NCBI RefSeq assembly: GCF_017348835.2
Contig: NZ_CP071375.1
Length of the DNA: 64,000 nucleotides
Strand: one strand, 5' to 3'
Source of the DNA: Escherichia coli
GTDB lineage: Bacteria; Pseudomonadota; Gammaproteobacteria; Enterobacterales; Enterobacteriaceae
A program made the position numbers. How positions within the stretch are numbered: position 1 is the first letter of the stretch; each line of letters starts with the position of its first letter. Below, piece after piece: positions 3,001 through 6,000 of the stretch.

Positions 3001-6000
3001 CGGAAAGTGATGGTAAGGCCTTTCCTCAGCCAGCAGGTGCTGCGTTACCAGTCCGGGAAGCCGCAACACAGGAAGAAATTAAAACAGAAACTGTGGCGGA
3101 CATTGTGCAGCCGTTGCCATCGTTTACCGAAACGCAAGCAGATGAGCTGATTTTTCCGTCCCTTCGCAGGGCAAACCTGGCGCTGCGCAGGGCGAAAAGT
3201 GATGTTCAGAAGTGGGAGCGAGTCTGCGCCGCGCTGCGGGAGCTGAACAAGTGCCGGGATATTCTCCGGGATATTACCGCCACCAGAGAACAGCAGCGGT
3301 GAGTGGGTGGAAGACGTGGTGCCGGGCGGAAATCATGATACTCCGGCAGTGTGCGGGAACGAGGAAGGTAAAAAGCGTTGGCGCACTTATCGGACGAACT
3401 GAAGCGGCAGTGAGAACGAAGGCACGGGAGCTGGGCATCAGCATGATGTTACGTGGTGATTTTCACCCGTCGGCAAAATATTCTCAGCGTGATATTGAGC
3501 TGGCGCGGCAACTGCATCAGAGAGGCATGCAAAGAAGGGAAATTGCCAGAAAATTAGGCATGCCGCTGCGCATAGTGAATAACTACGTTTATTTCGACAG
3601 GAGGGTGTCTGCGTGAAAATCCTGTATCAGGATTACGGCCCGGTGGGGCAGGTGGTTATCAGCAGTACTGTAATGGAGTTTCGGAAGCATAACCGTGTGG
3701 TGGATGCTGTGCTGTTAACCTGTCCGGGGATATCGGCGAGTCGTGCAGGTGTGTTTATTATGAAGACGAAATTATATGGCAGTAAGGCGTGGATAAAGAA
3801 GGCGTATCGTGTAGCGTTGCAGGAGGTTAACAGTGAGTGAAATTAAAGAAATGCCGGTAGTTCGTGACGGATATGGCAACTGGACACATCCTGAATATGA
3901 AAAATTCTGTGATGGTCGGGAATATATTTCAACGGAAGAGTTTAACGCCTGGATGGAGGAAAATAATCTTCAATACGTCCTCTGCTTCAGAGATGAAGGA
4001 TGTGCTGACCTTGATGCGTGTGATGCTGATATTTCTGCATGGGAACCGGAACGACCAGAGGGCGATGGCTGGTTTATTGGTTCCATTCATGATACGGAAG
4101 ATGGCCCGGTTGTGTCTGGTTGCGAAATAAGGCTGAAGCATAAAGGCGATAAACCAACTAACAACTAAATACTGAAGATTTAAATCAGAAACGATTTTTA
4201 TTAAATCCTTAACCGGAGGGATTCCTGCACCCTCAGAACATCAGGAGGCCGCCCGAAAGGGCGGTAAGAAATGAAACATTATTTAGAAAAAAATTACCCA
4301 CGAAAGAGCAGAGCAACAGAGTTTCTGTTTTTCATTCTGTTTATAGTGTTGATGATACCGATATCCCCGCTATTACTGGTCTGGATAATTGGAAGGACAT
4401 TTGAACCAGTTATTGAGCTATATACCGATGTGACATGGGAATCATTCAGCGCACTGCACAATAAAATTAATCCGTATAAGGAAAACTGATATGAGCACTA
4501 TTACCAGAGAACGCGCGGAGATTAAATCATACATCACAGGCTTCCTGAGCGACTCGGCGCACGATAACAAGTCTTCAGACAGCCTGCTGGCTAATGTGTT
4601 TCGTATCGCGCTGGCATCACTGGAAGCAGAGCCGATAGCAATGGTAGTGCCTGATGAAATGGATTTGCTTACCTGCCATCTCGACGGTGTAACTAAAACA
4701 TATGCTGATGGCTGGAACGCCTGCCGCGTCGCCATGCTTCAGGCCGGAAACTTTCGGGAAAATAAGAATTCGTCAACCAACAATTTTCGGGAAATCTCGG
4801 AAACGTCAACCAGATCTCCGATAACTCTGGATGGCTGGATAAGCTGTACTGAGCGAATGCCTGAAAAGAGCCAGAACGTGCTTATTTCGATGAATATCGA
4901 TAGCGAGGCTGGGCCATTAATATATTCCGCACGCTATCTCGGAGGCACGTTCCGGCGCGGAGGTATAGCAGTTAGTCCGGGTAATGATCTTAGGCAAGCA
5001 ACCCACTGGATGTCGCTACCAGAACCGCCGCAGGAGGTGAATCAATGACCTGGCCTGAAGCATTCACAACGGTAGGAATTGCGATGGCGGTGGCGCTGGT
5101 GGTGTATTCGATTTGCCGCTGGGGATAAAAACGGTTTGCGGGAAAAGGATAGTTAAGTAGAATTGCTGCGGGTGCTTGAGGCTATCTGCCTCGGGCATGA
5201 ACACCAACGGCAGATAGAGAAAAGCCCCAGTTAACATTACGCGTCCTGCAAGACGCTTAACATTAATCTGAGGCTCAATCCATGCTGAACACATGTAGGT
5301 TAGCCTCTTACGTGCCGAAAGGCAAGGAGAAGCAGGCTATGAAGCAGCAAAAGGCGATGTTAATCGCCCTGATCGTCATCTGTTTAACCGTCATAGTGAC
5401 GGCACTGGTAACGAGGAAAGACCTCTGCGAGGTGCGAATCCGAACCGGTCAGACGGAGGTCGCTGTCTTCGTAGACTACGAATCTGAGAAGTAAGAGACC
5501 AGGCGGGGGAGTAATCTCCCGCCACCTCTGATGTGTCAGGCATCCTCAACGCACCCGCGCTTTACCATACTGAAAATGCTGTTTGAATGTTCATCTCTGA
5601 AAGAGGACTATGAATGAAAAAGGTATTGATTGCAGCACTTATTTCCGGTGTGTCTTTTGGCGCTTTTGCACAGCAGGGTGGTTTCCAGGGGCCAGAAGCA
5701 GAGCGTTCAACAGTAGCGCAGGCAAAAGAACTGAAGGATGATGCATGGGTTATCCTTGAAGGGAGCATCGTTAAAAAAGTGGGTGATGAACGTTATGAGT
5801 TTCGTGACAATAGCGGGACAATTGTCACGGATATTGATGACAGCGTATGGGCCGGGCAGAATGTTTCTCCGAAAGACAAAGTAAGAATTGAGGGTGAAAT
5901 TGATAAAGACCTGAGCAGTGTTGAAGTTGATGTAAAGGCACTGAAATTATTAAAGTAACCGCCCCTGCTTGTTAAGCCCGTCTTACTGACGGGTTTTCTG

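Follow-up and report, generated by a model that had tools for sequence, protein, structure and literature searches.

What is a gene for a predicted periplasmic stress protein doing among the early genes of a lambdoid prophage, and from which promoter is it read? The question is raised by an open reading frame at 5614-5958 of the 64,000-nucleotide stretch of Escherichia coli DNA analysed here (hereafter, the window). The first-pass annotation had described this frame as a signal-peptide-bearing protein of the BOF (YgiW/YdeI) family situated between hok and a DUF968 gene, and had regarded it as a lysogenic-conversion gene, linked through its family to stress and antimicrobial-peptide resistance, rather than as a phage function. 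Taken as a whole, that interpretation is partly supported by our analysis, which adds one modest new element, namely that BOF is strictly linked to hok and appears to be embedded in the hok transcription unit.

The reading frame is intact, with an ATG start and 114 codons plus stop that occupy exactly 5614..5958 on the plus strand, and an SD sequence (AGAGGA, 5602-5607) lies six bases 5' of the start codon. Membership of the BOF family was borne out by Pfam PF04076 (E = 1.9e-33; 115.1 bits against a cut-off of 25.8; 93 of 103 profile positions), by NCBIfam NF033674 for NirD/YgiW/YdeI proteins (136.8 bits; cut-off 35) and by TIGR00156, which also scored above threshold (112.3 bits; cut-off 108.15). 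Identity with YdeI itself was ruled out, as the equivalog model NF007471 reached 64.8 bits against a cut-off of 179. E. coli YgiW (1NNX) is the sole match by sequence among solved structures (E = 3.5e-29), and it is also the closest PDB structure to our AlphaFold2 model (E = 1.1e-11, TMt 0.91, 53% identity over the domain). The model, computed with 13 homologues as input, is a five-stranded OB barrel with a mean pLDDT of 82.7, at least 90 over residues 31-114 and below 50 at residues 1-3 and 13-23. Family and fold are thereby established, and the two parts of the protein are as follows.

5614..5670, plus strand: predicted signal peptide, residues 1-19 (MKKVLIAALISGVSFGAFA), with putative cleavage between AFA and QQ
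5671..5958 (stop codon included), plus strand: mature BOF/YgiW-type OB-fold domain, 95 aa, 10.5 kDa, pI 4.6

A signal peptide is predicted as well, on a rule-based reading. The putative leader comprises MKK, a 16-residue hydrophobic stretch (mean Kyte-Doolittle 2.2) and A-F-A before QQ, it satisfies the n-h-c and AXA rules, and it aligns with the leader of YgiW such that the predicted cleavage point coincides with the mature YgiW N-terminus in 1NNX. These features suggest a Sec-type leader and export via Sec, and the BOF protein can be described as a predicted exported, acidic, single-domain OB-fold member of the BOF (YgiW/YdeI) family. It shares with YgiW (the VisP of Salmonella) the family, the single OB barrel, a predicted Sec leader and an acidic mature protein. 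The two differ in that overall identity to K-12 YgiW is 49%, the window protein is 16 residues shorter, and it has one GGFxGP segment where YgiW has two. That it is the YgiW orthologue, a core gene beside qseBC, was ruled out, since the gene is prophage-borne, lies 3' of hok and is without the CTTAAG-N5-GTTAAG box considered below. Identity to K-12 YdeI (OmdA), of the same Pfam family, is 34%.

The gene is already known and annotated, a point that the first-pass annotation had missed. Its product is identical to RefSeq WP_000756596.1 ('NirD/YgiW/YdeI family stress tolerance protein'), and the same gene was recorded in 1999 as L0136 of the Stx2 phage 933W, 'similar to hypothetical YgiW and YdeI proteins', where it adjoins hokW/mokW/sokW. 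L0136 and its counterpart in Sakai Sp5, ECs1244 (H0152), which lies beside ECs1245, are one residue apart from the window protein (99.1% identical). At the DNA level, a 976-bp block (5030-6005) is 97% identical in 933W, with 97-98% identity over hok and BOF, and similarity ends at 6005. In 933W and Sp5 the block is near attR, on the strand opposite to the adjacent structural genes L0134/L0135, whereas the window copy belongs to the nin region of a prophage that carries effectors but no Stx, and is on the early-operon strand. A protein at least 98% identical is encoded in 45 of 50,697 phage records, every one of them an Stx-converting phage. Our search of the literature on WP_000756596, 933W L0136, ECs1244, and ygiW together with hok found nothing apart from one GWAS (PMC11950266), to which we return below.

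The prophage occupies the first ~43 kb of the window, between potC and potB, and is 99.9% identical to a prophage of E. coli PE164. Its immunity region is of the RacR/YdaT type and its replication genes are O/P-like; the genes of the nin region are, in order, DUF4014, DUF551, hok, BOF, a 90-aa ORF, DUF968, RusA and Q. Further 3' come two tRNA genes and the genes for lysis, head and tail, after which follow Lom and an effector locus that includes NleG-family genes as well as EspW. The placement of BOF between hok and DUF968 was thus right as to position, except that the 90-aa ORF ahead of DUF968 had been overlooked. A tblastn search found no second BOF or hok within the 64-kb window. The elements of the locus, other than the two parts of the protein given above, are these.

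5135..5163, plus strand: presumed hok promoter (TTTGCG, 17 nt, TAGAAT), read from the sequence and present in four of four contexts
5170..5566, plus strand: hok mRNA body, with the 5' element GGGUGCUUGAGG at 5170, mok, hok, a hairpin and the fbi element
~5220..5290, minus strand: sok antisense RNA, carried over from the 933W sokW annotation (L003 2937-3007) through an alignment 97-98% identical
5282..5494, plus strand: mok
5339..5494, plus strand: hok (Pfam HOK_GEF PF01848, E = 1.1e-22)
5502-5523, plus strand: hairpin in the hok mRNA
5544-5556, plus strand: 3' fold-back (fbi) element CCTCAACGCACCC, complementary to the hok mRNA 5' end GGGUGCUUGAGG
5567..5613, plus strand: BOF leader, 47 nt, with the SD sequence, and without a terminator or a sigma-70-like promoter match
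5974..6006, plus strand: intrinsic terminator, a 9-bp stem (AAGCCCGTC/GACGGGTTT) with a U-tract, at the right cassette edge
6080..6352: 90-aa ORF (phrog_1212), between BOF and DUF968
~6354..7403: DUF968 gene, downstream of BOF

Upstream of BOF, a Hok ORF, an overlapping mok, a sok antisense RNA and 5'-3' pairing together make up a type I toxin-antitoxin locus. The sok/hok 5' regulatory region (Rfam RF01794) was recognised at 5170-5344 with 113.5 bits; Rfam matches to snoRNA, miRNA and CsrC models around BOF were far under their gathering scores and were rejected as chance. The presumed hok promoter scores under the threshold of the promoter scan. In the minimum free energy fold of 5170-5613, the 5' end pairs with 5544-5556 as a closing helix (z = -5.3), and the hok domain keeps this helix in isolation as well as in the context of the 834-nt RNA of hok and BOF that runs from 5170 to the terminator. 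The helix agrees with the fold-back-inhibition architecture established for the hok mRNA of plasmid R1.

A published study of the 933W/Sp5 copy found it to be a functional toxin-antitoxin system whose hokW mRNA is detectable in uninduced Sp5 lysogens and whose hok assists Sp5 release after induction (PMC8621323). The same study summarises the 3' processing of hok mRNA, and its Northern analysis refers to a 'full-length' hokW mRNA without a stated size and leaves the downstream gene unmentioned; a pre-print on prophage Pas sRNAs goes no further than to cite this study. The hokW-sokW deletion and tagging constructs made in Sp5 stop just upstream of BOF (PMC8621323, primers YO-352 and YO-561), and could be polar on it.

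A key finding from the comparative analysis is that hok and BOF form a single cassette. Alignment of four contexts (the window, 933W, a second nin region and a phage-free chromosomal site) defines a unit of ~880 bp, with its left edge at ~5123 and its right edge at ~6005, just past the stem-loop. Within it, the 437-bp BOF unit (5567 to ~6005), composed of leader, ORF and terminator, comes directly after the hok mRNA with its fbi element, so that the cassette extends between the hok promoter and one terminator. Indeed, the 5974-5996 stem is the sole terminator-like site on either strand in 4900-6500. In closely related but BOF-less hok loci, of which thousands of E. coli genomes provide examples, similarity to the window stops exactly at 5566. 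For example, strain JJ1886 has the same nin arrangement (hok, 90-aa ORF, DUF968) without BOF, and there an intrinsic terminator (AACCCGCTTCGGCGGGTT plus a T-tract) directly follows the CCTCAACGCACCC element; relative to JJ1886, the insertion or deletion of BOF extends precisely from 5567 to ~6005.

The linkage holds across the species. BOF is present in 549 of 5,426 complete E. coli genomes, at one to four copies each, and a junction probe spanning the hok 3' end and BOF (5500-5700) is fully covered in the same number, 549; in complete E. coli genomes, then, this BOF lineage never occurs apart from the hok 3' end. Among the matches listed, the carriers are mostly strains of O157, O145, O111, O26, O103 and O121. 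The second nin region carries a cassette copy whose protein is 82% identical, and a copy with 81% identity is found on the chromosome, flanked by a cytochrome c peroxidase gene and apbC/metG and without phage genes in its neighbourhood. The ~880-bp cassette thus moves as one piece between prophages and chromosomal sites.

That BOF is cargo rather than a phage function, as had been proposed, is borne out by its presence or absence at the nin site, by the occurrence of the cassette at the other end of 933W and outside prophages, and by its low GC content and purifying selection. At 44% GC, the BOF ORF falls below both the hok unit (53%) and the window as a whole (51%). Between pairs of cassette copies, whose dS reaches 0.55, dN/dS is 0.04-0.23, which indicates purifying selection on the protein. 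In ~500 genomes the ORF is intact and at least 99% identical, and the family-invariant residues and the SD sequence are conserved among copies. As expected of a moron, BOF is a discrete insert, present or absent in otherwise colinear phages, bounded by a terminator and atypical in composition. It resembles the self-contained, prophage-expressed lambdoid morons bor and lom as a terminator-bounded insert with atypical GC and a predicted host benefit. Unlike them, it apparently has no promoter of its own; it is inserted in the 3' UTR of the mRNA for a type I toxin, and seems to use the promoter of that mRNA.

The cassette proteins, which are 113-115 aa long, group as a separate clade in a neighbour-joining tree (no bootstrap), sister to a YgiW-like group and far from YdeI. 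Their nearest non-cassette relatives are 55-68% identical, 127-128 aa long and without hok, and adjoin IS elements or plasmid genes (CcdAB and a ProQ/FinO-like gene); none of these relatives was found to be a direct donor of the cassette lineage. Judged from sequence, the BOF of the cassette is a distinct short lineage that exists solely fused to hok/sok.

From which promoter, then, is BOF read? The promoter scan returned no sigma-70-like match on the plus strand upstream of BOF in 4900-6002, and a weak sigma-S-like -10 (CATACT, 5566-5571), a candidate promoter element, straddles the hok/BOF junction. Ahead of K-12 ygiW and of two plasmid/IS-borne relatives, at a distance of 50-66 nt from the start codon, is a direct repeat, CTTAAG-N5-GTTAAG, which in our view resembles PmrA/QseB-type response-regulator boxes. 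This repeat is absent from every cassette copy, even with up to two mismatches allowed. QseB has been reported as a regulator of ygiW (PMC5053249). On the simplest reading, BOF would have lost a stress-responsive promoter and would now be read from that of hok. We infer that the two genes are co-transcribed, with BOF embedded in the hok transcription unit, because there is no recognisable terminator between them; hence BOF is probably not an independent neighbour of hok, a point that the first-pass annotation had missed. Read-through might yet be cut short by Rho-dependent termination or by RNase cleavage past the fbi element, and BOF might have a promoter of its own in 5560-5600, either weak or of sigma-S type. 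As the window copy lies inside the early rightward (nin) operon, additional expression during lytic growth is predicted.

The link between this family and stress or antimicrobial-peptide resistance, noted in the first-pass annotation, agrees with published work on cationic-peptide, H2O2, cadmium and acid tolerance (PMC6370654; PMC5053249). For example, SipA of Vibrio cholerae, a periplasmic protein, has both antimicrobial peptides and OmpA as binding partners and confers protection from polymyxin B, LL-37, H2O2 and cadmium, and interactions with OmpF and OmpD have been reported for YgiW and YdeI (PMC6370654). YdeI (OmdA) and SipA are proposed to act by binding cationic peptides in the periplasm in partnership with an outer-membrane protein (PMC6370654). 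In addition, VisP, the YgiW of Salmonella, is a peptidoglycan-binding protein that inhibits LpxO and confers resistance to cationic peptides, and E. coli YgiW has been linked to H2O2, cadmium and acid tolerance (PMC5053249).

With these relatives in mind, the reading that we favour, with some confidence, is that BOF is a host-benefit, envelope-stress moron expressed from the prophage by read-through from hok. The gene would be transcribed by read-through of the constitutively made hok mRNA, and so expressed in the lysogen independently of the phage early and late promoters. The protein would be exported by Sec and, once in the periplasm, would act like YgiW/VisP, YdeI and SipA by binding cationic ligands and/or outer-membrane proteins, so that the cell better tolerates antimicrobial peptides as well as oxidative, metal or acid stress. 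The hok/sok pair would, in turn, stabilise the element that carries BOF. A stress-tolerance function is suggested by family membership, and its transfer is a loose one because identity is 49% to K-12 YgiW and 34% to YdeI and the GGF segment is not duplicated.

Other explanations account for parts of the same evidence. BOF could be an independent stress gene with its own promoter (for instance a sigma-S one) in the 47-nt leader or the hok 3' region, hok transcripts being terminated or processed upstream of it. Such a promoter could use the sigma-S-like -10 (C-CATACT, 5565-5571), which reads TATGCT or CATGCT in diverged copies, and it would fit with the conservation of the leader among copies whose coding sequences have diverged. 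But the element is accompanied by no -35, the plus strand of 4900-6002 offers no sigma-70-like match, and the two-component-type box of the ygiW relatives is missing; moreover, the terminator that comes after the fbi element in BOF-less loci has no counterpart here, not even a T-tract, and the linkage to the hok 3' end is invariant. We consider an independent promoter unlikely, at roughly one chance in a handful.

Less probable still is that BOF serves the phage, either in superinfection exclusion through an OmpC, OmpF, OmpA or BamA receptor, or by modulating the envelope damage done by Hok or holin and thereby lysis timing. In favour of such service are the binding of outer-membrane proteins by relatives (PMC6370654) and the strict coupling to hok, which aids Sp5 release after induction (PMC8621323); the window gene is in the early nin operon, and the phenotypes of the hokW constructs (PMC8621323) could include polar effects on BOF. 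Against such a role, PADLOC models gave no match for BOF (nor for the 90-aa ORF or DUF551), its PHROG family, phrog_1230, is labelled 'unknown function', the 933W copy lies outside both the early and the late operons, and the 81%-identical cassette is under purifying selection at a phage-free chromosomal site. DUF968, with a single PglZ match at chance level, was likewise rejected as a PADLOC defence gene. The same PHROG label, and the fact that no experimental function is known, would also suit a non-functional passenger, a decaying remnant hitch-hiking with hok/sok. This we regard as very improbable given the intact ORF and its near-identity in ~500 genomes, the low dN/dS values across the cassette copies, and the conserved family-invariant residues and SD sequence.

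The preferred reading, of a host-benefit moron served by hok read-through, has a more elaborate form that we put forward tentatively, as a possibility rather than an expectation. Perhaps the hok mRNA, long-lived and compactly folded, doubles as the BOF messenger, with BOF translated from the 3' extension as a protective protein of the periplasm while the full-length RNA is silent for Hok, and with the 3'-to-5' trimming that activates Hok first destroying the BOF message. If this were true, one RNA would switch from 'protect the envelope' to 'kill', the expression of BOF and that of Hok would be mutually exclusive, and Hok activation would be held back further by the 440-nt extension. Such an RNA would encode a type I toxin and have a cargo cistron built into it.

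BOF is thus an annotated YgiW-family gene found in ~10% of complete E. coli genomes and in classic Stx2 phages, and its cassette structure bears on a recent observation in pathogenic strains. A 2025 GWAS of HUS among Irish STEC reported 'ygiW_2' and a mokC-like gene, 'group_5720', as an interacting, HUS-associated pair, which was left unexplained; 84% of the HUS isolates carried ygiW_2, as against 66% of those from non-HUS cases (PMC11950266). Most likely, ygiW_2 and group_5720 are the two halves of one hok-BOF cassette carried on 933W-type Stx phages, in which case the signal probably reflects phage linkage and not the interaction of two independent genes. More generally, if BOF is indeed read from the hok mRNA, the cassette would offer a simple, testable case of a cargo gene that borrows a toxin-antitoxin transcript for its expression in the lysogen.

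Several lineages of the BOF stress-protein family circulate on mobile elements, in addition to the core genes ygiW and ydeI. The closest BOF relatives outside the hok-BOF cassette (127 aa; loci L018-L020 and L012-L014) sit in mobile contexts, with CcdAB, a ProQ/FinO-like gene, IS110 and ISL3 as neighbours, and it is from these contexts that we draw this conclusion. A direct repeat, CTTAAG-N5-GTTAAG, which resembles a response-regulator box of the QseB/PmrA type, lies upstream of K-12 ygiW (about 3727-3743 of that locus, L004), and was detected 50-66 nt upstream of both ygiW and two plasmid/IS-borne relatives (L012 and L018). 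The same repeat was looked for upstream of the hok-linked BOF copies and found in none of them.

Small hydrophobic reading frames were also detected upstream of hok, one of them in the window:

5045-5128, + strand: unannotated 27-aa hydrophobic ORF, peptide MTWPEAFTTVGIAMAVALVVYSICRWG

Its ATG overlaps the stop codon of the DUF551 gene (ATGA), and a PHROG search with this ORF returned no match. The ORF probably encodes a real small membrane protein, because the peptide persists both in Stx2 phage 933W and, as MNWPEAFAITGVAMAIAFLVYVICRWG, in a diverged nin region, although the underlying DNA differs at many positions. Another hydrophobic ORF, of 34 aa, is conserved between the chromosomal cassette (L006, 3493-3597) and the cassette of a second nin region (L010, 530-634), and lies just upstream of hok in both. 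Neither the window nor 933W has it, and it may be an additional small-protein module that some hok-BOF cassettes carry with them.

At the other end of the cassette there are two promoter-like sites:

6003-6030, + strand: TGTACA-16-TACAAT, directly after the BOF terminator; consensus match only
5975-5946, - strand: second promoter-like site, antisense, into the BOF 3' end; consensus match only

The forward site may drive the 90-aa ORF and DUF968, a suggestion made because its -10 region (TACAAT) is kept in the BOF-less locus of E. coli strain JJ1886.

Further along the prophage lie the following features:

7787-8608, + strand: Q antiterminator (PF03589)
8752-8827, + strand: tRNA gene, tRNA-Met (CAT) by ARAGORN versus tRNA-Ile in RefSeq
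8928-9004, + strand: tRNA-Arg (TCT) gene
about 35900-43100: prophage right end, with Lom (Ail/Lom family), three DUF1076 proteins, an NleG-family effector, EspW and a 'bfpT-regulated chaperone'

The N-terminal part of Q contains DnaJ-type CXXCXGXG zinc-finger repeats (E 4e-07, under the Pfam cut-off). Both tRNA genes lie downstream of Q, at the position that stx occupies in Stx phages; here they are followed, in place of stx, by TerB, DUF3927 and a DUF6645 gene with a frameshift. The right end is followed by potB, with phoPQ about 5 kb beyond, and its gene content, including the NleG-family effector and EspW, therefore identifies a prophage carrying type III effectors, from attaching-effacing-type E. 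coli.

The cassette also bears on published work. A hokW-sokW deletion (kanamycin cassette) and a hokW-3FLAG insertion have been constructed with primers YO-352 and YO-561 (PMC8621323), and both, compared with window 5495-5600, stop just short of the ribosome-binding site of BOF, on its upstream side. If BOF is co-transcribed with hok, polar effects on BOF could contribute to the reported phage-release phenotypes. In a HUS GWAS, the hits 'ygiW_2' and 'group_5720' (mokC-like) were statistically dependent (PMC11950266); these are plausibly the two genes of the single cassette described here (window 5123-6005), in which case their association with HUS may merely mark carriage of a 933W-type Stx phage.
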